This document shows positions 17,891 to 64,000 of a stretch of 64,000 nt of DNA, piece after piece. Location: contig WRPI01000007.1 in assembly GCA_009773395.1 (NCBI GenBank), forward strand, positions 118,326 through 182,325. The letters are read 5' to 3'. Numbering within the stretch: the first letter of the stretch is position 1; every line of letters starts with the position of its first letter. Position numbers and translations under genes: made by a program. The DNA comes from Hyphomonadaceae bacterium. Its GTDB lineage: Bacteria; Pseudomonadota; Alphaproteobacteria; Caulobacterales; Aquidulcibacteraceae. The notes under the pieces were generated by a model. That model worked only from the letters and a program-made list of their open reading frames with translations, ran no database searches and was not told the origin of the DNA.

Positions 17891-17905
17891 GAACAAATCA
17901 AGAAC
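17891..17905. promoter_or_regulatory. LexA (SOS) box upstream of ruvC
   Basis: GAAC-AAATCAA-GAAC, 24 bp upstream of the ruvC start; ruv genes are typical SOS targets. Confidence 0.8.
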
Positions 17906-17919
17906 TATTTGCCTCGCAA

Positions 17920-17984: not shown

Positions 17985-17986
17985 AT

Positions 17987-18724: not shown

Positions 18725-18791
18725 TTGTATCTCTCATTGCATTCAATATTTGCCGTGCCATAATACAAATATTCTAATTGCATAAGGGGTG

Positions 18792-20042: not shown

Positions 20043-20099
20043 TTGACACACTCCTCACGTTGCCACGCTGTCAGGAGTTAAAAGGTAAAGCACACCTTC

Positions 20100-20172
20100 C
20101 ACTTCCCTGCGCGAGCATTATCTCTTTCAGGTTCAAAGGGTATTTCTCAGCTTATTTAAAAGCACCCCTAGC
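20100..20172 (-). ncRNA. TPP riboswitch (THI element)
   Basis: Minus strand CTAGGGGTGC...GCTGAGAAATACCCTTTGAACCTGAAAGAGATAATGCTCGCGCAGGGAAG, matching the GCTGAGA, ACCC, GAACCTGA, TAAT, GCG and AGGGA hallmarks. Confidence 0.93.
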
Positions 20173-20389
20173 ATTTGTAATTATGTGGCTTGTTTCGGCA
20201 AACAATGTCAAGAACTTGTCACAAAATACCTGCGTCATATGAACCAAAATCAAGCAAGTGGACTGGACGCAATGGTGCAGATTGTTTATATGCGCCTTGC
20301 GCTGTCGGCTGAACCATTGATTTGCGCTTTGGTCTGACTTCAAATCATTTTCAAAACAATCCCCAACGGGATATTTATCGGAGAAAACA

Positions 20390-48931: not shown

Positions 48932-49942
48932 TTAGAGAATAAATAGGATACCACACAGCACAACAATAAGCATCACCAATGTTTGCAAAACAACCATCAA
49001 AAGTGGCCGCCAACCGACGGCAACGATTTTTTTCAAATCAGTTTTCACACCAATCGCCGCAATCGAAATAAGCAACAGAGTCTTTGAAATTGAAGTTAAA
49101 CCATCAACCATTGATTTTGGCACGAGGTGGAAACTATTGACGATCGCGAAAATGAAAAAGGCAATCAAAAACTTGGGGAAGAATTGGGTTTTTGCGCCGC
49201 CTTCGCTCTTGATCTTACTACCAAGCCACAAATGGATTACCAAAACCATTGGCAGAAGCGCAGATACGCGAACCATTTTAACAAATGTCGCAGTGTCACC
49301 AGCTTTTTGTGAAATCGAGAAGCCAGCACCCGCGACTTGCGCGACATCGTGAATTGTGCCGCCTAATAATATGCCGGCATTTTCGTCCGACAAATGCAGA
49401 TAATGGGTCAATAATGGATAGACAATCATTGCCACAGTTGAAAGTGTGGTGACGCCAACAATTGTAACCGCCAAATCACGGTCTTCATTTTCGCGCTTTG
49501 GCAGAACAGGCGCGATTGCCATCGCTGCCGAGACACCGCAAACCGCCACCGAGCCAGCACTCAGAGCGCCAAACTCCTTGGTTTGGCCCAATGCTTGCGC
49601 GATCCAAACGCCGCTGAGCAAGACAATCGCCATCGCCGATAATACAATCATAATCGGAATTGGCCCAAGCGCCATTATATCGTCGAAAGCAATTCGAAAC
49701 CCTAAAAGCGCAATGCCAAAGCGCAGAACTTCGCGCGCCGACCAATTGACGCCGATTTTTATTTTATCAGATTCATAAAGAAAGTGCCCCGCAAGGCCAA
49801 GCAAAAGCGCTATCAACATCGATGGCGTGCCATAGCGAGCACCAATGAAAGTCGCCGCAATGCTCAATACAATAGAAATTGCGGCTCCGGGATAGAGTTC
49901 AGACATTCTTTGCTTGATTTTTTCCACTATCGCACCTGTCAT
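48932..49942 (-). CDS. YeiH / UPF0324 putative sulfate exporter
   Basis: LRFGIALLGFRI, GSVAVCGVSAAMA, GGTIHDVAQVAGAG, KMVRV; about 10 TM segments. Confidence 0.9.
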   Translation of the reverse strand: MTGAIVEKIKQRMSELYPGAAISIVLSIAATFIGARYGTPSMLIALLLGLAGHFLYESDKIKIGVNWSAREVLRFGIALLGFRIAFDDIMALGPIPIMIVLSAMAIVLLSGVWIAQALGQTKEFGALSAGSVAVCGVSAAMAIAPVLPKRENEDRDLAVTIVGVTTLSTVAMIVYPLLTHYLHLSDENAGILLGGTIHDVAQVAGAGFSISQKAGDTATFVKMVRVSALLPMVLVIHLWLGSKIKSEGGAKTQFFPKFLIAFFIFAIVNSFHLVPKSMVDGLTSISKTLLLISIAAIGVKTDLKKIVAVGWRPLLMVVLQTLVMLIVVLCGILFIL

Positions 49943-49996: not shown

Positions 49997-51289
49997 CTAA
50001 TTCCCGAACTTATGAACCCAACTAATAGTTGCCTCAAACTGGTGCATGTTTAGTTCAATAGTCTGCGATGGGTTTGGCCCCATTGGCGTAACTTCAATGC
50101 CGCGCACTTTTGTTTCAGGTGCATACATGAATGCCGCTTCAATCGCATTGCCATTGCCCATATCATGCGCAAAGCCGCCAGTTAAATGCAGTTCAACCAC
50201 ACCCGGTGCCAATATGTTCAAAGTAACATCTTCTGGGCCAATTGGGTTATTATTGGACGAAATGCCCGCGCGCCATGTCCATGCATCTGAGGCTTTATAT
50301 TCCATGCCAAATTTAACTGTATCGACATCGTCCCAACCAAAGCCCGGGCCATTGGCTGCACCAAATGGCAATGGCGTCTGCCCCGAATTGCCCACCGAAT
50401 TAACATCGGAATAGGAAATATGGCGATAGCCGAGCATCAAAGTCAGATTATCACTGGCATCCATCGCAAGGCCCAAGGAATAATTAGCAGGAATGTCAAA
50501 ATCGCCATGATCGGCAAAAAGCCCAGCATATGCATCAAATTCCGACATGTTAATCTTGGGCTGGAATACAGCGCCAATGCGGAAATTATCGCTTAAAGCG
50601 ATTTCTGCACCGAGGCGAACCCCAAAGCCAGACGACCAATCATAATTGCGATTAGTCATATTTGCAGGGCTCGAAGAAACGCCGGCAAATGCGCCAAGAC
50701 CCGAAGCCTTGAACGCCTGCAACACATAAGTTGGTGAAATCCCAATTGAAATTTGGTCATTCAAACGACGAGCATAAGTGCCCGATACATAAAGTTGATT
50801 GAGACTGACACCTGATTTACCACCGCAAAAAACGCCTGAACATGGAAAACCAACATTGCGCGGAAATACATCACCATAGGTGGTGTTCATGCCACCGTTG
50901 CCATAAGCGGCCAGCGAAATTGCCGAACTTGCGTCTAATTGGCGAACATAACCAAATGCCGGCACTGGGAAATAATCCTGCCCACTTGTGACTTCACCAT
51001 TTGGCGTAAATGCCCCAGCCATAGGCGCGGTTGTGCCAGTAAAGCCGCGTTTGGGGCTGAATAATGAAACCCCAATTTCAAGGACATCGCCTGCGCCCAA
51101 AATACCAGCAGGATTATTGGCAGATGCCAGTGCATTATGCGCATTGGCAACATCGGCGCCAGCAAGCGCTTTGGATGCCGCACCAACGCCATTCATAAAA
51201 TAGCCCTCAGTGGCAAAGGCAGGTGTGCCAGCGCCGACACCAATTAAGAGCGCCACCAAAGATATAGTCTTTATACTGATTTTTTTCAT
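49997..51289 (-). CDS. OmpP1/FadL/TodX-family outer-membrane channel
   Basis: Signal peptide, hatch region ALAGADVA...NNPAGI, beta-barrel strands, aromatic C-terminus (ISWVHKF). Confidence 0.88.
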   Translation of the reverse strand: MKKISIKTISLVALLIGVGAGTPAFATEGYFMNGVGAASKALAGADVANAHNALASANNPAGILGAGDVLEIGVSLFSPKRGFTGTTAPMAGAFTPNGEVTSGQDYFPVPAFGYVRQLDASSAISLAAYGNGGMNTTYGDVFPRNVGFPCSGVFCGGKSGVSLNQLYVSGTYARRLNDQISIGISPTYVLQAFKASGLGAFAGVSSSPANMTNRNYDWSSGFGVRLGAEIALSDNFRIGAVFQPKINMSEFDAYAGLFADHGDFDIPANYSLGLAMDASDNLTLMLGYRHISYSDVNSVGNSGQTPLPFGAANGPGFGWDDVDTVKFGMEYKASDAWTWRAGISSNNNPIGPEDVTLNILAPGVVELHLTGGFAHDMGNGNAIEAAFMYAPETKVRGIEVTPMGPNPSQTIELNMHQFEATISWVHKFGN

Positions 51290-51334: not shown

Positions 51335-51562
51335 TTAGCTCACTTTTTTTATTATGAAACTTAGGACATTCCCCTCTTGAGAATGTGACACCAATTCATT
51401 GCCTGTGGTTCTGCAAAATGCCTCAAAATCCTTTTGCGCAGCAGGGTCAGTTGCAAGAACTTCCGCGGTTTGCCCGTCTTCAAGTCCTTTAAGTGCTTTC
51501 TTCGCGTGTAAAATCGGCAATGGGCAGTTTAAGCCTTTGCAATCGACTAATACGTCAGCCAT
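51335..51562 (-). CDS. tusA: Sulfurtransferase TusA
   Basis: DCKGLNCPLP motif, LATDPAAQKDFEAFC. Confidence 0.95.
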   Translation of the reverse strand: MADVLVDCKGLNCPLPILHAKKALKGLEDGQTAEVLATDPAAQKDFEAFCRTTGNELVSHSQEGNVLSFIIKKVS

Positions 51563-51590
51563 ATTCTTGCTCCTCTGTTTATATTAAAAT

Positions 51591-52076
51591 TTAGATGTAT
51601 AAATTGATGTCAGATTTAAGCGCGTTTTCGAGCCAAGTCGCTGCGCCGCCATATTCAATGCTATCGAGCATATTGGCGCGATCATAATCAAATAAATCCA
51701 TAGTCATTTGGCACGCGATCATATTGACATCAGACAAAATCGCCGCCTCGCGCAAATCCTCGATGGAGGCGACGCCTTTCTTCTTAATCATGTCTTTCAT
51801 CATCATTGTGGTAAGGCCAGTCATGCCGGGAATCATGCCCATCATATTTGGCATTTTCATATGGCCGCCCATCATTGGCATTTCCATTGCCGAATTACCC
51901 AAAGTAGTTACGCTTAAGTCAAGCTCCTTTTTGAGCAAGCCCAAGCCATAAAAAGTGAAAAACATATTGACTTGGACATCCATTGCCGCAGCAGTTGTCG
52001 CCAAAATAAACGGCGGATAGGCCCAATCGAGCGTGCCTTTGGTTACAATAATTGTCATTGACTTAGCATTTGCCAT
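51591..52076 (-). CDS. dsrE2: DsrE2-type (DsrE/DsrF/DrsH-like) sulfurtransferase
   Basis: KGTLDWAYPPFILATTAAAM...FFTFYGL...MIACQMTMDLF...GGAAT. Confidence 0.9.
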   Translation of the reverse strand: MANAKSMTIIVTKGTLDWAYPPFILATTAAAMDVQVNMFFTFYGLGLLKKELDLSVTTLGNSAMEMPMMGGHMKMPNMMGMIPGMTGLTTMMMKDMIKKKGVASIEDLREAAILSDVNMIACQMTMDLFDYDRANMLDSIEYGGAATWLENALKSDINLYI

Positions 52077-52151
52077 TATGGGCCTCCCTTTGGTATCGCG
52101 GAATTGTCAGAAATACCGCAATCTTAGCTTTTTCTAATTTACCTTATCATA

Positions 52152-52167
52152 ATTAACTAATACAAAT
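52152..52167. promoter_or_regulatory. Candidate sulfur-regulon operator (ATTA-N8-RAAT) between dsrE2 and the deacylase
   Basis: ATTA-ACTAATAC-AAAT. Confidence 0.45.
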
Positions 52168-52217
52168 GAACAAGTGGGTATTTTAACTTTTCGCACAAGG
52201 CCATATTTGAGGACAAT

Positions 52218-53315
52218 TTGAGCAAAGCAATTTTCATTACCAACCCAATTTTCGCCAGTGATGCATGGGGAAATAATCACCCATTGGCGATTTCACGGCA
52301 AAGAAGTTTGCTCGATTTTTGTTCGGCGCTTGGCTGGACGAGTTCGCAGAATATGGCGATTTGTGACTTCGCATCGCTTAATCAATTATCGCAATTTCAT
52401 AGCGAAGAATATATTTTGGCGTTCCAAAAGGCATCGCGGGATTTGAAAATTGATGCCGCCGGGCGCGCAGAATTCAGCATTGGCACTTTGGAAAACCCTT
52501 TATTTGACAAGGTTTTTGAACGTGCAAGCGCCAGCGTTGGCGGCTCAATTCTGGCGGCCGAAATTGCGCTTGGCGGCAAAGTGGCGTTTCACCCCGCTGG
52601 CGGCACTCATCATGGACGCAAAGACAAAGCGAGCGGATTTTGCTATTTCAATGATCCAGTTTTTGCGATTTTGACTTTGTTAGAAGCGGGGCTTAGCCGC
52701 GTGCTTTATGTCGATATTGATGCCCATCATGGCGATGGCGTGGAACTGGCTTTCAAAGCGGATAAAAGGGTGCATATGGTATCTCTGCACGAAGAAAACC
52801 GCTGGCCCAATAGCGGGGCATTGAAAGACAATTGCGCACAAATTTGTAATTTACCCTTGCCAAAAGCCATAAATGATTCGGAATATGCAATTCTGATTGA
52901 CGCGATATGTGAAAAATACGTGGATTTTGACGCGCAAGCGATTGTCATTGTCGCGGGCGCTGATTGCCTCAAAGGCGACCCGCTTTCAACAATGGCGCTT
53001 TCCAATTTGGGGTTTGTGTCGGCAATTGAGAAATTATTGAAACTTGCGCCAGTGAAAATTGTATTGGGTGGCGGCGGCTATAATCCCTGGACGGTGACAA
53101 GAGCCTGGGCGCTTATTTGGGGACGCTTGGCGGGATTTGAAATTCCACTCGCCTTGCCGCCATCTGCGCGAGACGTTTTGAGTGGCCTTGAATGTGATTT
53201 AATTGACGAGGAAGATATATTACCCGAATGGCGTGATTCCATTCAGGACAAAGGCAATGCGGGCGAAATCCGCGATGAAATTAATATCCTCGTTGGCTCG
53301 CTATCAAAATTTTGA
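52218..53315 (+). CDS. Zn-dependent deacylase, histone deacetylase/AcuC family
   Basis: GGTHHG, SGFCYFND, YVDIDAHHGDGVE, SLHE, GAD...DPL, GGGGYNP. TTG start after GAGG. Confidence 0.93.
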   Translation: MSKAIFITNPIFASDAWGNNHPLAISRQRSLLDFCSALGWTSSQNMAICDFASLNQLSQFHSEEYILAFQKASRDLKIDAAGRAEFSIGTLENPLFDKVFERASASVGGSILAAEIALGGKVAFHPAGGTHHGRKDKASGFCYFNDPVFAILTLLEAGLSRVLYVDIDAHHGDGVELAFKADKRVHMVSLHEENRWPNSGALKDNCAQICNLPLPKAINDSEYAILIDAICEKYVDFDAQAIVIVAGADCLKGDPLSTMALSNLGFVSAIEKLLKLAPVKIVLGGGGYNPWTVTRAWALIWGRLAGFEIPLALPPSARDVLSGLECDLIDEEDILPEWRDSIQDKGNAGEIRDEINILVGSLSKF

Positions 53316-53351
53316 TTTGCATCTTGACAATTTGGCGTTAAATATAAGAAT

Positions 53352-53367
53352 ATTAGCAAATACAAAT
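53352..53367. promoter_or_regulatory. Candidate sulfur-regulon operator upstream of lipS1
   Basis: ATTA-GCAAATAC-AAAT, between a TTGACA hexamer (53328) and the GGAGG RBS. Confidence 0.5.
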
Positions 53368-53382
53368 ACTCGGAGGAAAAAA

Positions 53383-54417
53383 GTGAATTGGTTTTCACAG
53401 CTCGCAAATATTGAAGCTTTTGAAGATGCAGAATTTGACGCAGCTTTGGTAGCGCGGATGCAAGCTGCTGCGCCGCAAAATCAAAGCCGCGAATTACGTT
53501 TTTCAAGCCCAACTTTCAAAGAATATGAAACTTCGGAGCTTTCTGGCTGCAATAAAAATTCATTTCCAGCGTTTTCGATAACTGCGGCGGGGTGTGCGCT
53601 TAATTGCGATCATTGCCAAAAGAAAATCCTTGAACCTATGATTCCCGCCACCAATCCCGAAATGTTGGATAGGAAAGTACGCGATTTAATAATGCTGCAA
53701 AACCTCCAAGGGTTTTTGCTCTCAGGTGGATCCAACAAGCGCAATGAAATTAAATACGAAAGATTTTACCCGGTCGTCGAAAAATTAAAACACGACTTTC
53801 CGCATTTGAAAATAGCGATTCACACCGCTTTGACCGATGAAAAAGGCGCGAAAGCAATGGAATCGGCCGGGGTTGATACCGCCATGATGGACGTTATTGG
53901 CGCGCAAGAAACCATAAACCAAGTTTATCATTTGGACCGTACTGTTGATGATTTCGAGGCCACTTTGGCGGCATTGTGTGCGACTTCCATGGATATCGTT
54001 CCGCATATTGTGATTGGCCTACATTATGGCAAATTATTGGGCGAAAAGCACGCACTTGATATGGTTGCGCGTCACAATGTTAATAGCCTGGTTTTGGTAG
54101 TCATAATGCCGTTTTATGCCAAGACTGGCACTTTCATAACCCCGACAACTGGCGACGTTGGCGAAATTTTCCTTGAAGCCCGCACAAGATTGATGGACAA
54201 AAAAGTCCTTTTGGGCTGCGCGCGGCCCGCAGGATTGCACAAACGTGTCACCGATGCCTATGCAGTTATGGCTGGGCTTGATGGCATTGCTTTCCCGGCT
54301 GAAGGCGCAGTTAAAGTCGCGCAAATGGTCGGACGCAAATTTGAGCAGGCTCATTCTTGTTGTTCCATCAAAATTGGTGGCGGGGCAATCGAAGCCAAAA
54401 GGAGCTGTGCAGCGTGA
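53383..54417 (+). CDS. lipS1: Radical SAM protein LipS1 (lipoate assembly, sulfur-oxidizer type)
   Basis: CALNCDHC, LLSGGS, VPHIVIGL, C-terminal LGCARP and CC. GTG start 53383 after GGAGG. Position matches the known lipS1-lipT-lipS2-lpl-lipX order. Confidence 0.85.
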   Translation: MNWFSQLANIEAFEDAEFDAALVARMQAAAPQNQSRELRFSSPTFKEYETSELSGCNKNSFPAFSITAAGCALNCDHCQKKILEPMIPATNPEMLDRKVRDLIMLQNLQGFLLSGGSNKRNEIKYERFYPVVEKLKHDFPHLKIAIHTALTDEKGAKAMESAGVDTAMMDVIGAQETINQVYHLDRTVDDFEATLAALCATSMDIVPHIVIGLHYGKLLGEKHALDMVARHNVNSLVLVVIMPFYAKTGTFITPTTGDVGEIFLEARTRLMDKKVLLGCARPAGLHKRVTDAYAVMAGLDGIAFPAEGAVKVAQMVGRKFEQAHSCCSIKIGGGAIEAKRSCAA

Positions 54418-55523
54418 TTGCCGATATTTGCATAGTCGGGCTAGGGCCAGCGGGCGCAGAGGCTGCGAGAATTTGTGCAGGGGCGGGGCTATCCGTAATT
54501 GCTGTCGAGCGCAAAAAACAAGCTGGGCTTCCAGTGCAATGCGCGGAATTTGTGCCATCATTATTAAGCAGTGAAACCCTCGAAGCATTTCACAATAGCG
54601 TTCAATTGATAGATGATATGGTGACTTTCGTCGAAAATGATGCGCCCCACAACCGCGAAACATTTTCGGGCCGTATGATTGACCGCGCCAAATTTGACGC
54701 GGCACTTGTTGCCAATGCCAGACGGGCGGGCGCGAATATTATTTTGGGTGAAAATGTGGTTGAAATTTCAAAAAATGGTGAAATTTCTTTGGCGAATGGG
54801 CAAAAAATCCAAGCCAAAATCATCATTGGCGCCGATGGCCCACATTCGATTATTGGGCAAGCAATTGGGCAAATCAACCGCGAATGCCTCGAAACAAGGC
54901 AAATCACCGTTGAACTGAAAAACCCGCAAACTTCCACCGATATTTATTTATCACATAAATATAAGGGCGGTTATGCTTGGGTGTTCCCCAAGGGCAAAAT
55001 TGCCAATATTGGGCTTGGGCTGCACCAATCACAAAAATCCAAATTAAAGCCACTGCTTGAAGAATTGTGGGAACAATTGCGTGAACAATCATATGTCGGC
55101 AGTGAGATTATGGCAACTACTGGCGGCGCGATTCCAGTTGGCGGCATGTTGCGTCCCTTTGGACATTTAGGTGAAGTTTTGGTTTTATTGGCGGGAGACG
55201 CGGCAGGCCTAACCAACCCAATAACGGGCGCTGGCATTCCTGCTGCTGTGGTTTCAGGGGTATTGGCTGGGCAAGCTGCGATTGCTTCGCTCAAAGGCGA
55301 TGAATCTGCCGCAACCAATTATGAAGAGGAATTAGAAGACCTTTTTGGCACTTCATTGCACAGAGCCCGACGCCATTATTTACGGCTTTTGGCAATCCAT
55401 GAAAATGGCGGCAAACCAAATAAACTAGACTTAAAAAAGGCCTGGATTGCTTTCCCGGAATATTGGGAAAATCAAAAAAATATGAACGAGATTGGACAAG
55501 AACATGACTTGCTTGAAGCCTGA
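54414..55523 (+). CDS. lipT: FAD-dependent oxidoreductase, geranylgeranyl-reductase-like (LipT)
   Basis: VGLGPAG, PVQCAEFVP, IGADGPHS, YAWVFPKG, GDAAGLTNPITGAGI. GTG start overlaps the lipS1 TGA. Confidence 0.85.
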   Translation: MIADICIVGLGPAGAEAARICAGAGLSVIAVERKKQAGLPVQCAEFVPSLLSSETLEAFHNSVQLIDDMVTFVENDAPHNRETFSGRMIDRAKFDAALVANARRAGANIILGENVVEISKNGEISLANGQKIQAKIIIGADGPHSIIGQAIGQINRECLETRQITVELKNPQTSTDIYLSHKYKGGYAWVFPKGKIANIGLGLHQSQKSKLKPLLEELWEQLREQSYVGSEIMATTGGAIPVGGMLRPFGHLGEVLVLLAGDAAGLTNPITGAGIPAAVVSGVLAGQAAIASLKGDESAATNYEEELEDLFGTSLHRARRHYLRLLAIHENGGKPNKLDLKKAWIAFPEYWENQKNMNEIGQEHDLLEA

Positions 55524-56790
55524 AGCTGCGATTCCGCGCGCAACAACAAACAGCGAAAAGGACTATAATAGCCTTGACGTAATGAACCCGCGCGCACCCA
55601 TGCCGACACCCAAAGAATTGCGAAATGGCGGCCAAGTTAAAGCCAATGCCATTGCGCCGCGCGGCCTTTATCGACCCAATAATAATATTTTGACACCGCA
55701 AATGACTTCTCCCGAATATGTCCAATTATCAACTGCTGCCGCTTTGACCATGGGGCTGATGGACGGAAAAATGCACCGCTGCGAATGCACACGCTGCCTA
55801 AACATTCTTTTGACTTACCCTGAAGGATGCCGCGCCAATTGCGCTTATTGCGGCCTTGCCCGTCATCGTGAAGCCGAGCGCGATTATGCAGATCGCAATT
55901 TTATTCGCGTCGATTGGCCCGCCGTGCCGATGGAGCAAATCGCCGAAACTGTCGGACGCGACGCCGCCGCCAGCCCGTTTCACCGCATGTGCATATCCAT
56001 GATAACCCATCCGCGTTCCGATGAAGACACCATAACAGTGCTTAAAACTTGGACCAAATATGTTGACCCTGACGCAATGCCAATTTCAATTTTATCAAAC
56101 CCGACCACAATGGAGCGCAAAGACGTGCAAATGTTGCGTGATTTGGGATCGGATATATTCACTGTAGCGCTTGATGCCGCAACACCATTAATTTTTGACA
56201 AAACTCGGGGTAAAGGCGTGCAATCGCCGCATTCATGGCAAAAATATTGGGAAATTCTTGAAGACGCAAAAGACATATTCGGGCCGAAAAAATTTGGCGC
56301 ACACATAATTGTCGGTATGGGCGAAACTGAGTTTGAGATTTTATCGCTAATTCAGCAAATCGTCGATATGGGCGGTCATAGCCATTTATTCTGTTTTTAC
56401 CCTGAAAAAGGCTCATTGATGGATCACTTGCCAGCCACCCCAAGAGATCAATGGCGGCGCGTGCAATTGGCAAGATATATGATTGATTATTGCGGCGTTC
56501 GGGTTGAACAAATGGGTTTTGACAATGAAGGGCGTGTGATATCATACGGTCTGTCACAAGCCGAAGTTGAGATGACCATCAATAGTGGTATTGCATTTCG
56601 CACTTCAGGTTGCCCGGGCAAATTTGCAGACGATATTTCAGCTTGTGATAGGCCATATGGCGATAGCCCGCCATCAAATATTGCGAGCTATCCATTTGCG
56701 CCCGAAGCCAAGGATTTGCGCTTAATCCGCACACAATTGAATATGGAAAATCCTTTGGATCCCTATATTGAGGGCGAAGAACTTGAATAG
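55492..56790 (+). CDS. lipS2: Radical SAM protein LipS2
   Basis: GCRANCAYCGL, RMCISM, VALDAAT, FRTSGCPG...ACDRPYG. Start may be 55504. Confidence 0.85.
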   Translation: MDKNMTCLKPEAAIPRATTNSEKDYNSLDVMNPRAPMPTPKELRNGGQVKANAIAPRGLYRPNNNILTPQMTSPEYVQLSTAAALTMGLMDGKMHRCECTRCLNILLTYPEGCRANCAYCGLARHREAERDYADRNFIRVDWPAVPMEQIAETVGRDAAASPFHRMCISMITHPRSDEDTITVLKTWTKYVDPDAMPISILSNPTTMERKDVQMLRDLGSDIFTVALDAATPLIFDKTRGKGVQSPHSWQKYWEILEDAKDIFGPKKFGAHIIVGMGETEFEILSLIQQIVDMGGHSHLFCFYPEKGSLMDHLPATPRDQWRRVQLARYMIDYCGVRVEQMGFDNEGRVISYGLSQAEVEMTINSGIAFRTSGCPGKFADDISACDRPYGDSPPSNIASYPFAPEAKDLRLIRTQLNMENPLDPYIEGEELE

Positions 56791-57853
56791 GCCACTGCGT
56801 GTCATCGACACTGGCCTTTTGCAAGGGCGCATGAATATTGCGATTGATGCGGCAATGTTGGAATTGCGGCAGGCTGATATTATCGGCGATAGTTTGCGCT
56901 TTATTCATTTCGAGGCAACCGCACTGGTTGGACGCCATCAGGCACTTCATCAAGAAATCAAGGTGGATCATTGCAAAGCCAATGGGGTAGGAATTGGTCG
57001 CCGTGTAACTGGCGGCGGGGCGATTTATCTTGACCCAAAGCAATTAGGTTGGGCTTTAATATTAAAGCGCAATTCGCTTGCCGTGCAGGGCTTAGGCGAA
57101 ATTACCAAAGCAATATGCGAAGCGGCAGCTTTTGGGCTCTCAAAATTGGGAATTGATGCCCGCTTCAGGCCGCGCAATGATATTGAAGTTGCGGGGAAAA
57201 AAATTTCGGGCACAGGCGGTTTTTTTGACGGCGATGTTTTGATGTATCAAGGGACGGTACTGATTGACCTTAATCCAAGCGATATGGTGGCCGCATTAAA
57301 TATGCCGATTGCCAAAGCATCGCGTGAAGGCGAAACCGATCAAGCGGCGCGCGTTACAACCCTTAAACAGCTATTGGGGCAAGCTCCCACTCATGTTGAA
57401 GTGATAGCAGCCTTGACGCAAGGATTTGCCGAGAAGTTAAATTTTTTACCAAACCATGAACCGCCCTCCCCCGAAGAATTGGCATTGGCGCAAAAATTAT
57501 ACGCGGAAGAAATCGGCACTGATGAGTTTGTTTATGAAATTGACGAACCTTGGCGCGAAGCTGGTATTGGCATCGGAACTTGTAAATCGGCTGGCGGTGC
57601 GGTTACCGCTTATTTGCGCAAAGATGGGCCCAAAAATTCAACAATCCGCGAAGTGATTTTCGTCGGTGATTTTTTTGTTGCTCCGCCAAGATTGGTTTAT
57701 GATCTTGAAGCCCATTTAAGGGGCACGAAAATTGATAACATAGCGCAAGCCATAAATGAATTTTTCGCAATTTCTGGCAATCAGGGGCTTTTATCAATAA
57801 CAGCGGATAATTTTATTGAAGCGCTCACAAACGCCGCGGAAAACCAAAACTAA
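56783..57853 (+). CDS. Lipoate:protein ligase, sLpl(AB) type
   Basis: GRHQ, RRVTGGGAIY, NDIEVAGKKISGTG, QGTVL, and a C-terminal accessory domain with GDFF. Confidence 0.92.
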   Translation: MNRPLRVIDTGLLQGRMNIAIDAAMLELRQADIIGDSLRFIHFEATALVGRHQALHQEIKVDHCKANGVGIGRRVTGGGAIYLDPKQLGWALILKRNSLAVQGLGEITKAICEAAAFGLSKLGIDARFRPRNDIEVAGKKISGTGGFFDGDVLMYQGTVLIDLNPSDMVAALNMPIAKASREGETDQAARVTTLKQLLGQAPTHVEVIAALTQGFAEKLNFLPNHEPPSPEELALAQKLYAEEIGTDEFVYEIDEPWREAGIGIGTCKSAGGAVTAYLRKDGPKNSTIREVIFVGDFFVAPPRLVYDLEAHLRGTKIDNIAQAINEFFAISGNQGLLSITADNFIEALTNAAENQN

Positions 57854-58548
57854 TGAAAACCATAAACGTAATTCAGCATACATCGGCGGATTATTTGGGT
57901 CTGCTTGAAGACCATTTAGAGGGGCGTAAAATTGGCTTTTCTTATTGCCGCCCATTTGCCGAAGGCGCAACTTTGCCGCGCTTAAGTGATGTCAAAGACG
58001 GCATAATGTTTTTGGGAGGTGGGCCATGGGGCACTGCGGGGGTACGCGATATTCCAAGTCTCAAAAAAGAAATTGAGCTGTGCCGACATTGCCTTTTGGC
58101 CAATAAAATTATCATTGGCATTGGCGCAGGCGCACAAATATTGGCAATTGCTGCGGGTGGCGCGTCCGTGGCCAGCCCACTTGAATTTACTACAGGCATT
58201 GGAAGCCGCGTGCAAGGCGACGCACTTAACGGCTATCTCGATGCCAGTTTTCCATATGTGCTTTATGGCCGCGATTGGCCAGTGCCGCCCGATTATGCAC
58301 AGGTTTTGGCAATTGATGAAACTGGCCGCACGCTGGCATTTCAATTGGGCGAAACCGCGTTTGGCTTTGTGTTTCACCCTGGGATGAAATTAGCGATGGC
58401 CGAGGATTTGATTATGGAATTTGATGAAATCCCAACCGAGACCGCGCCGCAATTATTAAACCTTCAAAACATGAAGCGCGAAATCGAAGACAATTTGGTT
58501 AGGTTTATGACGGGCCTAATTCAAAAAACTGGCTTGATGCGCCATTAG
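57853..58548 (+). CDS. lipX: Class I glutamine-amidotransferase-like protein (LipX), triad degenerate
   Basis: GATase fold cues (LGGGP, GIGAGAQ, FVFHPG); sits between the ligase and dsrE3 as in described sHdr clusters. Confidence 0.75.
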   Translation: MKTINVIQHTSADYLGLLEDHLEGRKIGFSYCRPFAEGATLPRLSDVKDGIMFLGGGPWGTAGVRDIPSLKKEIELCRHCLLANKIIIGIGAGAQILAIAAGGASVASPLEFTTGIGSRVQGDALNGYLDASFPYVLYGRDWPVPPDYAQVLAIDETGRTLAFQLGETAFGFVFHPGMKLAMAEDLIMEFDEIPTETAPQLLNLQNMKREIEDNLVRFMTGLIQKTGLMRH

Positions 58549-58575
58549 ATTTTAACCGCAACTGTATTTTTGTAT

Positions 58576-58591
58576 ATTAGTTGTTACGAAT
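58576..58591. promoter_or_regulatory. Candidate sulfur-regulon operator upstream of dsrE3
   Basis: ATTA-GTTGTTAC-GAAT. Confidence 0.5.
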
Positions 58592-58688
58592 ATGCTACTT
58601 TACGCTTGACCTTTGGTAAAAACCGCGCAAGACTGTTTCCAATTACGATTGGGCAAACAGACCCAACTTTTTCTACAGGGAGGCCTTA

Positions 58689-59069
58689 ATGGCATCAAAG
58701 CTAATAATAGTTATGGCGAATACTGACCCGAAAAACGGCGAAGAATTGGGCGCGCCATTTTTTCAAGCCACAGTTGCCGCCGCAATGGATTACGAAGTTG
58801 AAGTAATTTGCACTGCAACATCGGGTATATTGATGAAAAAAGGCGTTGCTGAAAATCTTTTCGTAAAACCCGGTTCACCAAAATCAGTTTATGAATTTAT
58901 CAAAGACGCGCATGGCGCTGGCGTGAAATTTAGTTGCTGCTCACCAAATTTGGATTTGTTTGAAATGGGCGTTGAAGACCTCATTCCTGAATGTTCAGGG
59001 ATTGTTGGCGGCGCTTATTTGATTGAAGAAATCATGGAAAATGATGACGCAAGGGTGCTTACTTATTAA
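58689..59069 (+). CDS. dsrE3: DsrE3-type sulfurtransferase
   Basis: GAPFFQATVAAAMDYEVEV...GVKFSCCSP...GIVGGA; directly precedes shdrC1. Confidence 0.88.
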   Translation: MASKLIIVMANTDPKNGEELGAPFFQATVAAAMDYEVEVICTATSGILMKKGVAENLFVKPGSPKSVYEFIKDAHGAGVKFSCCSPNLDLFEMGVEDLIPECSGIVGGAYLIEEIMENDDARVLTY

Positions 59070-59074
59070 GCGCC

Positions 59075-59090
59075 ATTACCGATTTTGAAT
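59075..59090. promoter_or_regulatory. Candidate sulfur-regulon operator upstream of shdrC1
   Basis: ATTA-CCGATTTT-GAAT. Confidence 0.4.
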
Positions 59091-59120
59091 TGAAAATATT
59101 CCAATATCAGGAAATAATTC

Positions 59121-59858
59121 ATGCACCATAGTTCAAGAGTACAAAAACAAATCGGCGATCCTGTAAGCGATACGCCAATTTTGCCGCGCGCGAAATTGCA
59201 AGAAATTTTTGACGATATTCAAAATGATATGCGCTTTGATCACGAGCTTAATGGCTGCTTGAATTGCGGCATTTGCACCGCCACCTGCCCGGCTGCGCAT
59301 TATTATGATTTTAGCCCGCGTGAAATTGTTCAATTGCTTTGGACTGAGAATCTCGAAGCAATTTATGATGCGATGCAAGAAAAAATTTGGGCCTGCGCGC
59401 AATGTATGACTTGTGCCGCACGATGCCCATTTGGAAATTCCCCCGGCGGTTTGATTATGATTATGCGCGAAGCTGCAATTAAGCATAATATGGAATCCGC
59501 CAAAAATGTTTTGCGCCCATTTTCGCGCGTGATGCTCAAACTGATTTCTACGGGCAATCAATTATCGCCCGATATGATTAATCCAGACCATTTTGCCGAT
59601 TGGGGCCCGAATATTTCTAAAGTCCATGCGCCTTTGGCATTATTGCGCAAGGCCATTCCAATGGCGACTTTGAACACCGTAAAAACCGCATGGGAAGTCA
59701 ATCTAAAAACCTCGGTCGAGCTTTATACAATTTGGGCCGAAACTGGGGTTTTGAACCAATTAGAAACCATTGACGAAAATCTATTCGATGTAATTTCCGA
59801 CATTATGGACGAAAAGCGTGACGATTGGTCAGATTTTCTTGATGACCAAGACGATTAA
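59121..59858 (+). CDS. shdrC1: sHdrC1, heterodisulfide reductase-like 4Fe-4S subunit
   Basis: CLNCGICTATCP and CAQCMTCAARCP ferredoxin motifs. Confidence 0.93.
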   Translation: MHHSSRVQKQIGDPVSDTPILPRAKLQEIFDDIQNDMRFDHELNGCLNCGICTATCPAAHYYDFSPREIVQLLWTENLEAIYDAMQEKIWACAQCMTCAARCPFGNSPGGLIMIMREAAIKHNMESAKNVLRPFSRVMLKLISTGNQLSPDMINPDHFADWGPNISKVHAPLALLRKAIPMATLNTVKTAWEVNLKTSVELYTIWAETGVLNQLETIDENLFDVISDIMDEKRDDWSDFLDDQDD

Positions 59859-59886
59859 TCAGGAATAAAAAAAGGGAGCGAAAATT

Positions 59887-61272
59887 ATGCAACCGACCAA
59901 TAACGGTACCGAGCGCTTTACTGGCCACGGCAGTGAATGGCGTGACAGCAATCTTAATTCCGGCGACGCGCAAATGGCGACAGCTTGGGTCGAGCAGCGC
60001 ATTGATAAGCGCTCGATGCTCACTAATAAAGACCGCGTTCAAGACGTGCGCGAAATTATGTGGCAATTGGAAAAAGAGGGTGAAATCATTGTTCATCGAA
60101 TCAATGATGAACATGACCCAGTAATGGCGAAAACTCTTTATGGTTGGGACAAGAAAATCCCGACCAACCAATTATGGCACCATAAATCATGTGGGCAATG
60201 CGGTAATATTCCTGGCTATCCCGCTTCATTGCTGTGGATGATGAACCAATTTGGCACTAAATATCTTGACGAGACTGACCAAACTTCCTGCACTGCATGG
60301 AATTATCACGGCTCGGGGATTGGCAATGTCGAAAGCCTTGCCGCAGTTATGTTGCGTAATTTCCACCAAGCCTATGTTTCGGCCAAAGCTGAAGGTAAGC
60401 CTGAAGGCTATTATTACCCACTGGTCCATTGCGGCACTTCATTTGGGAATTACAAAGAAGTTCGCGGCTATTTGCTAACTAGTGCGACATTGCGCGAGCG
60501 CGTAAAAACTATTCTTGGCAAATTGGGTCGCTTGGTTGATGGTAAATTGCTTATCCCCGAAGAAATTGTCCATTATTCGGAATGGGTGCATGTCATGCGC
60601 CGCAAAATTGCTGAGCGGCAAATTATCGACGCCTCGCAAATTCGCGCGACAATTCACAATGCTTGCCATGTCTATAAAATGATACCGCAAGACGTGATTT
60701 ATGATGATGAAGTGCTCGAAGGCGATAGGGTTGCGGTTTCGACTGGCATTATCCAGTCCTTGGGCGCGCAAATTATTGATTATTCAACTTGGTATGATTG
60801 TTGTGGTTTCGGGTTTCGGCATATTATTTCCGAACGCGAATTCACGCGTTCATTCGCAATTGACCGCAAACTAAAAATAGCAGTTGAAGAAGCCAATGCT
60901 GATATGATGATTGGTCATGATACTGGCTGCATCACTACTTTGGACAAAAACCAATGGATTGCTAAGGCCGATGGCAATAATTATGAAATGCCGATTTTGG
61001 CGGATATTCAATTTGCGGCTTTGGTCTGCGGTGCGCACCCCTATAAAATCGTGCAGTCACATTGGCACGCTTCGCCCGTTGAAAAACTTTATGACAAATT
61101 GAAAATTGACTGGCGCGCCAAAAAAACTGAATTTGAAGATTACTTAAAGCAAATTGAAGCGGGCGGCACTCGCGAAATGTTATACGACCCACGCCGCGCA
61201 ATTACTGGTGGCCCTGGCTATAATAAGACACAAGCTTTGGCGGCAGAAGCCTTTGTTCCAACCGCAATATGA
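59887..61272 (+). CDS. shdrB1: sHdrB1, CCG-domain subunit
   Basis: WHHKSCGQCGNIPGY, QTSCTAWNY, HCGTSFG, DCCGFGF, DTGC. Confidence 0.94.
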   Translation: MQPTNNGTERFTGHGSEWRDSNLNSGDAQMATAWVEQRIDKRSMLTNKDRVQDVREIMWQLEKEGEIIVHRINDEHDPVMAKTLYGWDKKIPTNQLWHHKSCGQCGNIPGYPASLLWMMNQFGTKYLDETDQTSCTAWNYHGSGIGNVESLAAVMLRNFHQAYVSAKAEGKPEGYYYPLVHCGTSFGNYKEVRGYLLTSATLRERVKTILGKLGRLVDGKLLIPEEIVHYSEWVHVMRRKIAERQIIDASQIRATIHNACHVYKMIPQDVIYDDEVLEGDRVAVSTGIIQSLGAQIIDYSTWYDCCGFGFRHIISEREFTRSFAIDRKLKIAVEEANADMMIGHDTGCITTLDKNQWIAKADGNNYEMPILADIQFAALVCGAHPYKIVQSHWHASPVEKLYDKLKIDWRAKKTEFEDYLKQIEAGGTREMLYDPRRAITGGPGYNKTQALAAEAFVPTAI

Positions 61273-61293
61273 ATTGAATAAGAGGAAAAAAAC

Positions 61294-62331
61294 ATGAGTG
61301 ATAGTGTTTTAGTTGTTGGTGGCGGCCCAGCCGGGCTTTCTGCGGCGCATGCGCTCGCATCTGCGGGTATTAAAGTTGATTTGGTTGAAAAGGCCGATAT
61401 ACTTGGCGGCGCGCCAATATTGTCAGGCTATGCCAAACTTGTGCCTTCAGGTGAATGGGCAAAAGACGCAATTGGTTCGATGGTTGATAGAGTTGTCGCC
61501 AATCCAAATATCAAAGTGCATCTGAACAGCGTGGTTCAAACATTTGATGGAAAACCAGGCAAATTTGATGCGGTTCTGAAAAACGGCACGAAAATCAAAG
61601 CTGGCGCGACAGTTCTTTGCACTGGGTTCACCCATTTTGACAGCGTGAATAAACCAGAATGGGGTTTTGGCCGCTTTCCCGATGTTGTGACGACCACCCA
61701 AGTTGAGCAAATGATTTCATCGGGCAAAGGCGTCCGTCGCCCTTCAAATGGCGAAAAACCCAAGCGGGTCGCGATTTTGCTTTGTGTTGGCTCGCGTGAT
61801 CGGCAAATTGGCCGCGAATGGTGTTCCAAAATTTGCTGTTCGGTATCGGCAAATCTTGCGATGGAAATTCGTGAAGAGCTGCCAGATTGCCATGTTTATA
61901 TTTATTATATGGATATCCGCACTTTTGGACTTTTGGAAACCAAATATTATTGGCGTTCCCAAGAAGAATTCAAAGTCAAATATATCAAAGCCCGCATCGC
62001 CGAAGTTACTGGCCGTGATGGTCAAGTTTTGGTTAAAGGCGAAGATACATTGGTAAAACGCCCAATTTCTATACCTTTTGATATGGTGGTTCACGCGGTT
62101 GGTATGGATCCAAACGTTGATAATATGCTGTTGTCATCGGTGTTTGACGTGAAGCTTGAACCAAATGGATTTGTAGATCGCAAAAACACTTATGGGATTA
62201 TGGGTGCAAGTTCGCGCGATGGGGTGTTTGTCGCAGGTTCAGCAACTGGCCCCGAGACCATTGACGATTCAATCGCCCAAGGCGCGGCGGCAGCAATGTC
62301 AGCCTTAGCTTCATTGCGAGAGATGGCATAG
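61294..62331 (+). CDS. shdrA: sHdrA, FAD subunit
   Basis: VVGGGPAG, LCVGSRD, WCSKICC, YMDIRTFG, VFVAG; short form without ferredoxin inserts. Confidence 0.94.
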   Translation: MSDSVLVVGGGPAGLSAAHALASAGIKVDLVEKADILGGAPILSGYAKLVPSGEWAKDAIGSMVDRVVANPNIKVHLNSVVQTFDGKPGKFDAVLKNGTKIKAGATVLCTGFTHFDSVNKPEWGFGRFPDVVTTTQVEQMISSGKGVRRPSNGEKPKRVAILLCVGSRDRQIGREWCSKICCSVSANLAMEIREELPDCHVYIYYMDIRTFGLLETKYYWRSQEEFKVKYIKARIAEVTGRDGQVLVKGEDTLVKRPISIPFDMVVHAVGMDPNVDNMLLSSVFDVKLEPNGFVDRKNTYGIMGASSRDGVFVAGSATGPETIDDSIAQGAAAAMSALASLREMA

Positions 62332-62339
62332 GTTTTCCC

Positions 62340-63191
62340 ATGGCTTTCAACTTCTTCAACAATAAGCAAGAGCAGTCGGAAATTGTGTTGCCCACTTTGG
62401 AATTAAGTGGCGCGGCAATTGCGCATGGGTTGAAGTTGCTATTTAATAATTGCGAAAAATCGGGCGGAATTGAAACTTTTGTTGAAGCGCTGAAGCTAAA
62501 ACAAATCGCTTTCAAGGATATTTTTTCGCGCTCAAAAATTGATATGCTTGATGCGCGCGGATTTGCTAAAATCAGCAAATTCATGCCAACTGTGCGGCGG
62601 CGGATTGGACCTTATGTGGAAACCGAGGCTTTTATGCATCTTAAAACCGCGCTGATAGGTTTGGTTTCGCCCGAGCATGATGCGAATAAAGTCGATGAGC
62701 GAATTTTGGCATTTTGCGCCAATTTCCCCGATGACAAACATCACCGTTGGGTGCGCGACTTGGCAGCGGAAGTATTGCACAACACCTATCCCGAACTATA
62801 CCCATTGATGACAAGGTGGATGTGGGATCTAAAAGCCAATACTGGCGTAATTCGTGAAATTTGGCATGGTGACATTGATAAAGTCATGATTACTGTTCCC
62901 GATAATTATGCGACTTTTCTGCAATTGCGGGCTGAATTATCAGAATATTTGCACAAAGAAGGCGTTTACAAAGACACTATTCAATATGTTGATTTGTTGT
63001 GCACCCAAATTTACGCCGATTATGTCGCCGCCCAAGGTGGTTCTTATTTGCGCGCGGATTTTTCGTCCGCCGAAGATGGCATTGGCTATTTGCTGCGGCT
63101 TTTGGGACTTGATGGTGTAAAAGCAAAAGTCGCAAATGACCAAATTCCACCTGATAATGCTGGCCTTTTACAAAATTTCAACAAGGGATAG
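62340..63191 (+). CDS. shdrH: sHdrH (conserved hypothetical between shdrA and shdrC2)
   Basis: Position in the C1-B1-A-hyp-C2 order; RWVRDLAAEVLH...PLMTRWMWD...GGSYLRADFS. Confidence 0.75.
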   Translation: MAFNFFNNKQEQSEIVLPTLELSGAAIAHGLKLLFNNCEKSGGIETFVEALKLKQIAFKDIFSRSKIDMLDARGFAKISKFMPTVRRRIGPYVETEAFMHLKTALIGLVSPEHDANKVDERILAFCANFPDDKHHRWVRDLAAEVLHNTYPELYPLMTRWMWDLKANTGVIREIWHGDIDKVMITVPDNYATFLQLRAELSEYLHKEGVYKDTIQYVDLLCTQIYADYVAAQGGSYLRADFSSAEDGIGYLLRLLGLDGVKAKVANDQIPPDNAGLLQNFNKG

Positions 63192-63197
63192 TGCGTA

Positions 63198-63959
63198 ATG
63201 GCAATTCATGAAAAACACCTAATTCGCCCTGAAAACCTCGCCACCCATGATAATTTGGTGATTGATGGCGTCGATGTATCGGGCGATTGGTCCACTTTTA
63301 TTCGCACGCGCGCAGTGTCCGATTACAATGAAGACTTGCAAGTAGAAATCGCGGCGTTACCGGGTGGTGAATATATTCATCGTTGTTGGCAATGTGGATC
63401 TTGCACCAATGCCTGCACTGTAAACGAGCTCAATCCCGATTTTAATCCAAGATATTGGATATATTTAATCCGCATGGGTTATGAATCCGAATTATTGCGC
63501 GATAAGGACATTATTTGGCAATGCGTTTCGTGCAATAAATGCACTTCGGCTTGCCCGCGCGATGTTGTGCCCGAAGGGGTGATGAAAGCAACTGCGCATT
63601 GGCTTGAACTAAAGGGCCATACCGCAACTTCGCCCTCAACTGATTTTGACGAAATTTTCGCATCACAAGTTTTCCACAAAGGCAAAATTGAAGACGGCAG
63701 CATTTTGACTGGCTTTATGAAAAGGTCAGGCCAGCCATTGATTCAAGATTGGCTGATTGAAATGATAAAGGGAATGCTACGCGATTTGCCAATTAGATTC
63801 CTATTCAATATGGGCTGGGCGACCTTATTTCACCCCAAAACCAAAAATTGGGGCAAAGCGCGCGCTGCAATCGAAGAATATGTTGCCGAGCGTGATGAAG
63901 CGCATCGTATCGCCTTGAAATTGGATAAATCTGTAGATCTTCATGGTCACCATAATTAA
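63198..63959 (+). CDS. shdrC2: sHdrC2, 4Fe-4S subunit
   Basis: CWQCGSCTNAC and CVSCNKCTSACP motifs. Confidence 0.93.
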   Translation: MAIHEKHLIRPENLATHDNLVIDGVDVSGDWSTFIRTRAVSDYNEDLQVEIAALPGGEYIHRCWQCGSCTNACTVNELNPDFNPRYWIYLIRMGYESELLRDKDIIWQCVSCNKCTSACPRDVVPEGVMKATAHWLELKGHTATSPSTDFDEIFASQVFHKGKIEDGSILTGFMKRSGQPLIQDWLIEMIKGMLRDLPIRFLFNMGWATLFHPKTKNWGKARAAIEEYVAERDEAHRIALKLDKSVDLHGHHN

Positions 63960-64000
63960 TAGCGCATTCCCAAAAGTTGTTCGACTTTTGGGATAAAATG
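63960..64000. repeat. CIR/RIME-like repeat, left arm (truncated by window edge)
   Basis: TAGCGCATT-CCCAAAAGT-TGTTCG-ACTTTTGGG-ATAAAATG, same architecture as the left arm at 13129. Confidence 0.7.

Follow-up and report, generated by a model that had tools for sequence, protein, structure and literature searches.

Several chemolithoautotrophs, among them Acidithiobacillus, Thioalkalivibrio and Aquifex aeolicus, combine a sulfide:quinone oxidoreductase (SQR), sulfur carriers of the TusA and DsrE type, the sHdr complex and CO2 fixation. Their common logic leads sulfide or elemental sulfur through SQR and the sulfur carriers to an sHdr-LbpA system that yields sulfite, in organisms that live autotrophically. 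The sHdr-LbpA system of Hyphomicrobium denitrificans has reportedly been the subject of work published in 2018 by Koch and Dahl and by Cao et al. Its genes follow the order lipS1-lipT-lipS2-slpl(AB)-lipX-dsrE3-shdrC1B1AHC2B2-(hypothetical gene)-lbpA, accompanied by an ArsR-type regulator, sHdrR, and by tusA (PMC10332631; PMC11094781). Systems are classed as type I where shdrC1B1AHC2B2 stand in one syntenic cluster (Tanabe et al., 2024; 10.1101/2023.12.18.572138). The present analysis concerns a predicted system that shares this order, found in a stretch of 64,000 nucleotides (the window; positions 118326 to 182325 of contig C4), of which window positions 51335 to 64000 are treated in detail. 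The host, a marine bacterium with a small genome (2.6 Mb), belongs to the Caulobacterales as GTDB broadly defines them, and so do metagenome-assembled genomes (MAGs) of Robiginitomaculum and Hellea.

At the level of its predicted genes, the cluster is a complete and intact type I (Hyphomicrobium-type) sHdr-LbpA system with a putative private lipoate-assembly pathway. The sHdr system itself is of an ordinary, already-known kind; what is new is its context. Genes for sulfur oxidation, sulfite oxidation and CO2 fixation lie side by side in an alphaproteobacterium whose order is regarded as one of organoheterotrophs or photoheterotrophs. The host differs in this from the chemolithoautotrophs named above, as it does in its form II RuBisCO and in an sHdr that belongs to an alphaproteobacterial Caulobacterales clade, not to a gammaproteobacterial or Aquificota one. 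Judged by gene content, the system would work independently of Sox and probably supplies facultative CO2 fixation, that is sulfur chemolithoautotrophy or mixotrophy, rather than lithoheterotrophy only.

Genes were assigned with profile databases (Pfam, and NCBIfam with its equivalog cut-offs) and with structures in the PDB, while cofactor motifs were read directly from the translations. Contig C4 runs 44 kb past the end of the window, and coordinates beyond the edge are given for locus L001 (C4:181000-200000), where the window coordinate equals the L001 coordinate plus 62674. The cluster comprises the following features.

51335 to 51562, minus strand: tusA, sulfur carrier (PF01206, 80.8 bits; CPLP active-site motif)
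51591 to 52076, minus strand: dsrE2, sulfur carrier (PF13686, 171.9 bits; NF047629 DsrE2, 207.5 bits against a cut-off of 210)
52218 to 53315, plus strand: histone deacetylase (HDAC)/AcuC-like zinc-deacylase gene, heading the lip genes (PF00850, 207.4 bits)
53203 to 54417, plus strand: lipS1, radical-SAM lipoyl synthase subunit (best NCBIfam match NF053742 LipS1, 189 bits against a cut-off of 230)
54357 to 55523, plus strand: lipT, flavin adenine dinucleotide (FAD) oxidoreductase in the position of H. denitrificans lipT (TIGR02032 geranylgeranyl reductase family, 196.7 bits, over cut-off)
55492 to 56790, plus strand: lipS2, radical-SAM lipoyl synthase subunit (best NCBIfam match NF053743 LipS2, 188.9 bits against a cut-off of 270)
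56768 to 57853, plus strand: slpl(AB), lipoate:protein ligase with LplA and LplB fused (PF21948, 141.8 bits)
57853 to 58548, plus strand: lipX, glutamine-amidotransferase-like (weak NCBIfam matches to glutamine amidotransferases, under their cut-offs)
58689 to 59069, plus strand: dsrE3, C-type by position, sulfur transferase (PF13686, 40.1 bits; Cys83-Cys84 pair)
59121 to 59858, plus strand: shdrC1, ferredoxin-like subunit with two [4Fe-4S] clusters (Fer4_8, Fer4_9; two CX2CX2CX3C motifs)
59887 to 61272, plus strand: shdrB1, proposed catalytic CCG-domain subunit (PF02754; HdrB NCBIfam, 104 bits)
61294 to 62331, plus strand: shdrA, FAD/[4Fe-4S] flavoprotein (PDB 6tjr, H. denitrificans sHdrA, E 1.3e-168, residues 5-340)
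62340 to 63191, plus strand: shdrH, conserved hypothetical subunit (homologue at the matching position, with 45-57% identity, in all related loci)
63198 to 63959, plus strand: shdrC2, ferredoxin-like subunit with two [4Fe-4S] clusters (Fer4_8, Fer4_9; two CX2CX2CX3C motifs)
63960 to 64000, plus strand: edge of the window, across which the cluster carries on along contig C4
L001:1343-2284, plus strand: shdrB2 (PF02754; two CCG stretches, ten Cys, two C...CC...CXXC sets)
L001:2281-2697, plus strand: conserved 138-aa open reading frame (ORF) between shdrB2 and lbpA (no family; five Cys including a CC pair)
L001:2707-3147, plus strand: lbpA, GcvH fold (PF01597, 104.9 bits; ESGKW lysine)
L001:3148-3492, plus strand: ArsR/BigR-type regulator, presumed sHdrR (PF01022; NF033788 over cut-off; two Cys)

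The six type I core genes are contiguous and co-directional from window position 59121 to L001:2284. Both sHdrB subunits carry the CCG domain of PF02754, and sHdrC1 and sHdrC2 each hold two [4Fe-4S] motif sets. Markers of type II (an sHdrB3 fusion, etfAB and emo) were missing: sHdrC2 and sHdrB2 are separate, so there is no sHdrB3 fusion, and no etf-like ORF lies within 20 kb around the cluster. An earlier note on this DNA had listed tusA, dsrE2, the lip genes, dsrE3 and shdrC1B1AHC2 with intact motifs; all are present at or near the coordinates it gave, and cofactor and active-site motifs proved intact on direct reading. Its list was incomplete in one respect, in that the HDAC/AcuC-like gene between dsrE2 and lipS1 was overlooked, and its forecast that shdrB2 and lbpA would follow past the edge was borne out, both genes being there, intact, on the same contig. 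The likeness it had seen to the H. denitrificans system extends to the identical order lipS1-lipT-lipS2-slpl(AB)-lipX (PMC10332631), and every cofactor motif has been kept.

Individual subunits point the same way. sHdrA, of 345 aa, keeps the CVGSRD...CSKICC cluster motif and matches the H. denitrificans protein (6tjr) over its whole length, at roughly 80% identity by eye; methanogen HdrA matches it over residues 100-339 only, so it is of the sHdrA type and not the methanogen HdrA type. sHdrB1 shares 76-87% identity with homologues in at least 80 genomes and DsrE3 78-85% across related loci, and sHdrH has no Pfam or NCBIfam match. The plus-strand genes are tightly packed, some overlapping, and the start of lipX overlaps the stop of slpl(AB) in an ATGA-type arrangement that is the same in H. 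denitrificans, where lipX has been described (PMC10332631). The radical-SAM motif CX3CX2C lies at residues 131-138 in LipS1 and 113-120 in LipS2. The true start of lipS1 is probably about 18 codons further downstream; its product is 386 aa as called in an ENA assembly. In sLpl(AB), model NF053749 covers the LplB tail (residues 289-356), and the protein scores 143 bits against the NCBIfam lipoate-ligase models (cut-off 280), which are its best match yet stay under the cut-off. As LipS1 and LipS2 both score about 189 bits, under the respective cut-offs, NCBIfam annotation may label both just "radical SAM protein". LbpA remains under the GcvH equivalog cut-offs (105 versus 117 and 76 versus 116 bits), with no gcvT or gcvP adjoining, and is thereby set apart from the GcvH of glycine cleavage. 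The 138-aa ORF before lbpA has a homologue in 68 of 80 related loci.

Past sHdrR the contig continues with genes for sulfite oxidation and CO2 fixation, and two further contigs hold the rest of the proposed pathway.

L001:3499-3834, minus strand: conserved 111-aa ORF just after sHdrR, no family
L001:3847-4326, minus strand: 159-aa exported monohaem cytochrome c (CSSCH motif; signal-like N-terminus)
L001:4336-5625, minus strand: SorA-like molybdenum sulfite dehydrogenase of 429 aa, exported by twin-arginine translocation (TAT) (PF00174, PF03404; SRRDLFK TAT motif)
L001:5739-7112, minus strand: cbbM, form II RuBisCO (NF010002, 892.7 bits against a cut-off of 489; PDB 5c2c, E 8e-268)
L001:7224-8228, minus strand: cbbR, LysR type (family match)
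L001:8246-8959, plus strand: haloacid dehalogenase (HAD) phosphatase, candidate phosphoglycolate phosphatase (family match)
Contig C8: operon cbbE (Rpe)-cbbF (fructose bisphosphatase)-cbbP (phosphoribulokinase, PRK)-cbbT (transketolase)-cbbA (class II fructose bisphosphate aldolase) (PRK PF00485, 242 bits)
C7:335335-336606: type I SQR of 423 aa (PDB 3sz0 from A. ferrooxidans, E 4.5e-135, residues 2-423; Aquifex 3hyv, E 1.6e-109)

The RuBisCO gene and cbbR lie 2.2 kb beyond sHdrR, no small-subunit gene adjoins cbbM, and with a bona fide form II RuBisCO and PRK both present the host belongs with organisms possessing the Calvin-Benson-Bassham (CBB) cycle. The SorA-like protein shares the molybdenum-cofactor and dimerisation domains, the TAT signal and an adjoining small c-type cytochrome gene with SorAB of Starkeya novella (2blf, E 2.5e-51). 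It differs in scoring 255 bits against the NCBIfam SorA cut-off of 600, and in a cytochrome that matches no family and whose N-terminus resembles that of a lipoprotein. A homologue with 68% identity occurs only in the congener G007 and in Hyphomonas sp. BC3.34, in the latter some 1.5 kb upstream of the sHdr locus (L010). SQR was identified through the PDB, NCBIfam having no general SQR model (91 bits against a selenoprotein subtype), and it is close to the A. ferrooxidans enzyme. A rhodanese of 112 aa (CRSGVR) is encoded nearby. The surroundings of SQR (C7:334918-338613) resemble a sulfide-response locus: the SQR gene and that of a BigR-like ArsR regulator point away from each other, and SQR is followed by a TolC-like outer-membrane protein (by eye), a tentatively DUF2892-like membrane ORF of 67 aa, the rhodanese and a resistance-nodulation-division efflux pair.

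In these respects the host departs from H. denitrificans, whose order of sHdr and lip genes it shares. Its cluster is headed by the HDAC-like gene, flanked by dsrE2, a FadL-like channel and yeiH, and followed by the SorAB-like sulfite dehydrogenase and form II RuBisCO with cbbR; a feeding Sox system, a linked full-length SoxT/YeeE importer and the methanethiol oxidase MtoX are lacking. Of sox, sqr, mtoX and pdo, which were among the genes that the earlier note had proposed to look for, SQR came to light with a firm identity. SoxB (TIGR04486) is absent from the genome, with control genomes behaving as expected; no ORF of the genome ends in the SoxY motif GGCGG; and 17 other sHdr-positive genomes of the clade have no SoxB either. 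A pathway fed by Sox was rejected on these grounds. Candidate ORFs of the metallo-beta-lactamase fold gave just generic GloB-like matches, and no persulfide dioxygenase is claimed.

One alternative is that sHdr here, like that of Hyphomicrobium, oxidises sulfane sulfur which stems from dimethylsulfide, methanethiol or other organosulfur compounds rather than from inorganic sulfide. The organism in which sHdr was first found is a dimethylsulfide degrader (10.1101/2023.12.18.572138), and sulfatases and a TauE-type exporter lie upstream in the window. Sulfatases, however, yield sulfate and not reduced sulfur; the genome has no SBP56/MtoX (PF05694), on which count the methanethiol route was rejected; and its SQR is a canonical one of type I, accompanied by a rhodanese and by a separate regulator of the sulfide type. 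Organosulfur as the source is accordingly considered quite improbable, and the organosulfur disposal that the earlier note had entertained is left without its marker enzyme.

What was observed are the genes and their order; the activities proposed below follow the H. denitrificans and Acidithiobacillus models. Sulfide would be oxidised to sulfane sulfur by type I SQR at the membrane, with electrons passing to quinone. Rhodanese, DsrE2, TusA and DsrE3 would then hand persulfide sulfur to the cytoplasmic sHdrC1B1AHC2B2 complex, and sHdr, together with LbpA lipoylated by sLpl(AB), LipS1/S2 and LipT, would by analogy with H. denitrificans form sulfite. The sulfite may leave the cytoplasm through TauE, YeiH or both, which are candidate exporters, and could be oxidised to sulfate in the periplasm by the TAT-exported SorA-like molybdoenzyme, its electrons going to the adjoining cytochrome c. 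Energy and reductant would finally serve the CBB cycle, in which form II RuBisCO would probably operate where O2 is low or CO2 is high. Facultative lithoautotrophy is the better reading of this gene set because RuBisCO with cbbR, cbbEFPTA, SQR and the SorAB-like enzyme are present and Sox, MtoX and reaction centres are absent. The earlier note's proposal of lithoheterotrophy or sulfide disposal stopped short of the RuBisCO and cbb genes, SQR and the SorAB-like enzyme.

How far sHdr and CO2 fixation go together was followed across 401 high-quality genomes of the order, representing 59 genera. sHdrB1 was found in 13 of them, from 6 genera. A RuBisCO large subunit occurs in four (G000, G007, G032 and G063), all sHdr-positive, which gives 4/13 among sHdr-positive genomes against 0/388 among the others (hypergeometric probability about 7e-7, by hand arithmetic). 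PRK is confined to the same four; the remaining nine genomes with sHdr lack it, and so do four congeners without sHdr. G063 holds cbbR, cbbF, P, T, A, cbbM and pgp together in one block, and G032, a "Hellea sp." MAG, has a RuBisCO with 32% identity to the host cbbM, probably of form I, with cbbR adjoining. No reaction-centre genes were found in the host or in the three other RuBisCO-positive genomes, and a phototrophic use of RuBisCO was rejected.

Physical linkage adds to the statistical one. The sister of the host lineage in the sHdr tree is the MAG "Sphingomonadales bacterium REEB408" (JAGWUZ010000009.1; L009), in which the sHdr cluster leads directly (positions 15997-21348) into a homologue of the 111-aa ORF, a divergent LysR gene (cbbR), cbbF, cbbP, class II cbbA and a gene for the RuBisCO large subunit, the last of them cut off by the end of the locus. 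The 111-aa ORF has homologues in 20 of 80 related loci; form II RuBisCO near sHdr was seen in none of the 80 (10-kb flanks). Linkage of sHdr and cbb genes therefore occurs twice, independently arranged, with differing cbb sets and only distantly related RuBisCO genes, which argues for functional coupling of the two.

The chief rival holds that SQR, sHdr and SorA merely dispose of sulfide and provide extra electrons to an organoheterotroph, much as H. denitrificans treats thiosulfate, RuBisCO and the CBB genes being a redox sink or a means of CO2 re-assimilation that sustains no autotrophic growth. Form II RuBisCO has low CO2 specificity and often serves redox balancing or works under high CO2, and sulfatases, TonB-dependent receptors and sugar-acid genes, including a sugar-acid transporter of the major facilitator superfamily, surround the cluster as heterotrophic genes. 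H. denitrificans, the model sHdr organism, is itself an obligate chemoorganoheterotroph (PMC12423496); the host, in contrast to it, has a CBB operon. Neither RuBisCO nor PRK is present in nine of the 13 genomes with sHdr, which alone does not imply autotrophy. Set against this are the restriction of RuBisCO and PRK to sHdr-positive genomes, the position of cbbM and cbbR so near sHdrR, a cbb operon that abuts sHdr in the sister lineage L009, and the retention of a complete cbbEFPTA operon in a 2.6-Mb genome. Disposal or lithoheterotrophy alone is on balance rather unlikely, and facultative autotrophy stays the preferred account. Beyond the heterotrophic gene content, the properties of form II RuBisCO and the nine genomes without CBB genes, several other observations weigh against that account. 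LipS1, LipS2, the SorA-like protein and DsrE2 all fall under their NCBIfam equivalog cut-offs. A search for YeeE/SoxT gave two weak half-size ORFs only, unlinked to sulfur genes. In G007, sHdr shares its contig with neither cbbM nor the SorA-like gene, so close linkage is not constant even among members of the genus. In favour of the account, no [NiFe]-hydrogenase or CoxL signature motifs were found, although this is weak evidence.

Whether the arrangement could be an artefact, or a very recent island of foreign DNA, bears on all of the above. sHdr is patchy: among the nearest relatives first sampled, sHdrB1 occurs in one of eight congeners and is missing from all 16 further genera sampled in the family, and the sister position in the sHdr tree falls to a "Sphingomonadales" MAG, as a freshly acquired or mis-joined segment might lead one to expect. 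The 21-kb arrangement from tusA to the HAD gene was nevertheless found again in an independent 80-kb ENA contig, and parts of it in two further assemblies (Logan and ENA contigs from other samples). Samples with this contig are ERZ27284375, ERZ27284376 and SRR8438314. The congener G007 has the identical order yeiH-fadL-tusA-dsrE2 followed by hdac-lip-dsrE3-shdr-lbpA-shdrR. The only N-run of the contig lies 9.8 kb upstream of the window, with no Ns in or near the cluster, and G+C content at third codon positions (GC3) of the cluster genes, mostly 0.41-0.48, agrees with that of the genome (0.439 +/- 0.035), a check of composition of the kind that the earlier note had recommended. The markers gcrA, flaF and flbT are on the cluster's own contig. 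Since the same order recurs in independent assemblies and in a congener and GC3 is like that of the genome, the cluster is neither a chimera nor a recent import; a chimeric join was rejected, and the artefact explanation as a whole is hardly credible.

The phylogeny of sHdrA and sHdrB1, likewise proposed by the earlier note, agrees. A quick IQ-TREE analysis of concatenated sHdrB1 and sHdrA (78 rows, 789 columns) places the window together with G007 (SH-aLRT support 99), with the "Sphingomonadales" MAG as sister. This group lies inside a clade (SH-aLRT 99) of 15 Caulobacterales (broad sense) and three Sphingomonadales rows, so that the order's sHdr sequences sit in one supported, Caulobacterales-dominated clade, separate from the groups of Hyphomicrobiales, Kiloniellales and Gammaproteobacteria. 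On the basis of this tree, Hyphomicrobiales and Gammaproteobacteria were both rejected as sources of a recent transfer. sHdr looks long resident in the order, with patchy retention or within-order exchange, and not recently imported. Three related loci, L081, L085 and L023, are labelled as Klebsiella pneumoniae, Streptomycetaceae and Enterobacteriaceae MAGs while their sHdr groups with Beta- and Gammaproteobacteria; these contigs are probably mis-binned or mislabelled.

Named carriers of sHdr in the order include many "Robiginitomaculum sp." MAGs (North Pond NORP and Oslofjord-tunnel OFTM), a Hyphomonas MAG, a Parvularculaceae MAG and the isolate Hyphobacterium lacteum HN-65. In the literature searched, no paper ties sHdr or LbpA to Caulobacterales, Hyphomonadaceae or Maricaulaceae, and none brings together sHdr and Robiginitomaculum; where Robiginitomaculum or Hyphomonadaceae have been recorded at vents and from a subsea tunnel, the papers list them in community profiles and ascribe no sulfur oxidation to them. 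The earlier note knew of no sHdr characterised in this group, and as regards the literature searched that stands, even if the genes are visible in public genomes. It had also named grounds on which its reading would fall, namely a lineage already known for sHdr, a missing or broken shdrB2 or lbpA, or a chimeric join; none of these holds, the first as far as literature knowledge goes. The sequence sulfide to elemental sulfur (SQR) to sulfite (sHdr) to sulfate has already been described for sediment MAGs of Woeseiales, Kiloniellales and other orders, Caulobacterales not being among those listed (PMC12345210).

Autotrophy in the order has been treated in a 2025 Nature Communications survey, in which CBB genes are reported only for the phototrophic Acaudatibacter and Vitreimonas, primary production is called a previously unrecognised role in the order, and sulfur appears only in the reference list (PMC12700997). 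These genera share with the host its order, a RuBisCO and the CBB cycle. Their RuBisCO is cbbLS within a photosynthesis gene cluster of freshwater Caulobacteraceae (PMC12700997), whereas the host has form II cbbM beside sulfur-oxidation genes and no reaction-centre genes.

That Sox-independent sulfur chemolithoautotrophy is a real and so-far undescribed lifestyle in marine Caulobacterales, carried by a co-inherited module of sHdr-LbpA, lipoate, sulfite dehydrogenase and cbb genes, is put forward more tentatively, as a serious possibility. If it were true, members of at least three genera would be primary producers: the host genus (form II), that of G063 (form II) and the "Hellea sp." MAG (probably form I). 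These lineages, met repeatedly on rocks at vents, in fluids of the crust and in biofilms of subsea tunnels, are now counted as heterotrophs. Reads of the Hyphomonadaceae or Robiginitomaculum type that come from vents, from basalt aquifers or from corroding concrete would then have to be interpreted differently. The locus would also offer a Sox-free alphaproteobacterial setting in which to study the transfer of SQR-derived sulfane sulfur to sHdr.

The host genome comprises 2.63 Mb in 17 contigs at 46% GC, with 99.86% completeness and 0.04% contamination, and may therefore derive from a culture. Its RpoB shares 88% identity with congeners and at most 75% with every named genome compared. The markers from which the earlier note had recognised the host (gcrA, flbT/flaF and Flj-type flagellins) were confirmed by Pfam matches to gcrA, flaF, flbT and two flagellins of about 275 aa.

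Upstream of tusA, three transport genes precede the cluster.

46701 to 47483, plus strand: tauE/safE-type anion exporter, inferred candidate sulfite exporter (PF01925, 164.9 bits)
48932 to 49942, minus strand: yeiH-family putative sulfate/anion exporter (PF03601, 228.7 bits; TIGR00698, 163 bits, under cut-off)
49997 to 51289, minus strand: FadL/TodX-type outer-membrane channel (PF03349, 66.7 bits)

The earlier note had counted tauE and yeiH within a segment beginning at 51335; both are genuine, by PF01925 and PF03601, but lie upstream of that start. yeiH occupies the same place in G007, with 66% identity. The FadL-like channel has a homologue in 33 of 80 related sHdr loci and is probably the counterpart of lipY, described as a "putative fatty acid transporter" of sHdr/lip clusters (PMC10332631).

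The HDAC-like gene appears to be a regular companion of the lip genes. A homologue is present in 43 of the 56 related sHdr loci that hold lipS1, lying within 400 bp of it in 36; these loci span Alpha-, Beta- and Gammaproteobacteria. In those loci that were tabulated, identities are 44-53%. The word "deacetylase" is absent from PMC10332631 and from a 2026 lipoylation preprint. The nearest solved structure is HDLP of A. aeolicus (1c3r, E 5e-63), which is also an sHdr organism.

An Rfam search returned nothing within the sHdr cluster; its sole match in the window and L001 is a thiamine pyrophosphate riboswitch (RF00059, 67.9 bits) at window positions 20087-20179 on the minus strand. Downstream of cbbM, cbbR and pgp lie two large DUF3604 proteins of 603 and 641 aa, each scoring more than 700 bits (L001:9209-14745; C4:190208-195744), with a peptidyl-prolyl isomerase-like ORF and a HupE/UreJ-type metal transporter between them.

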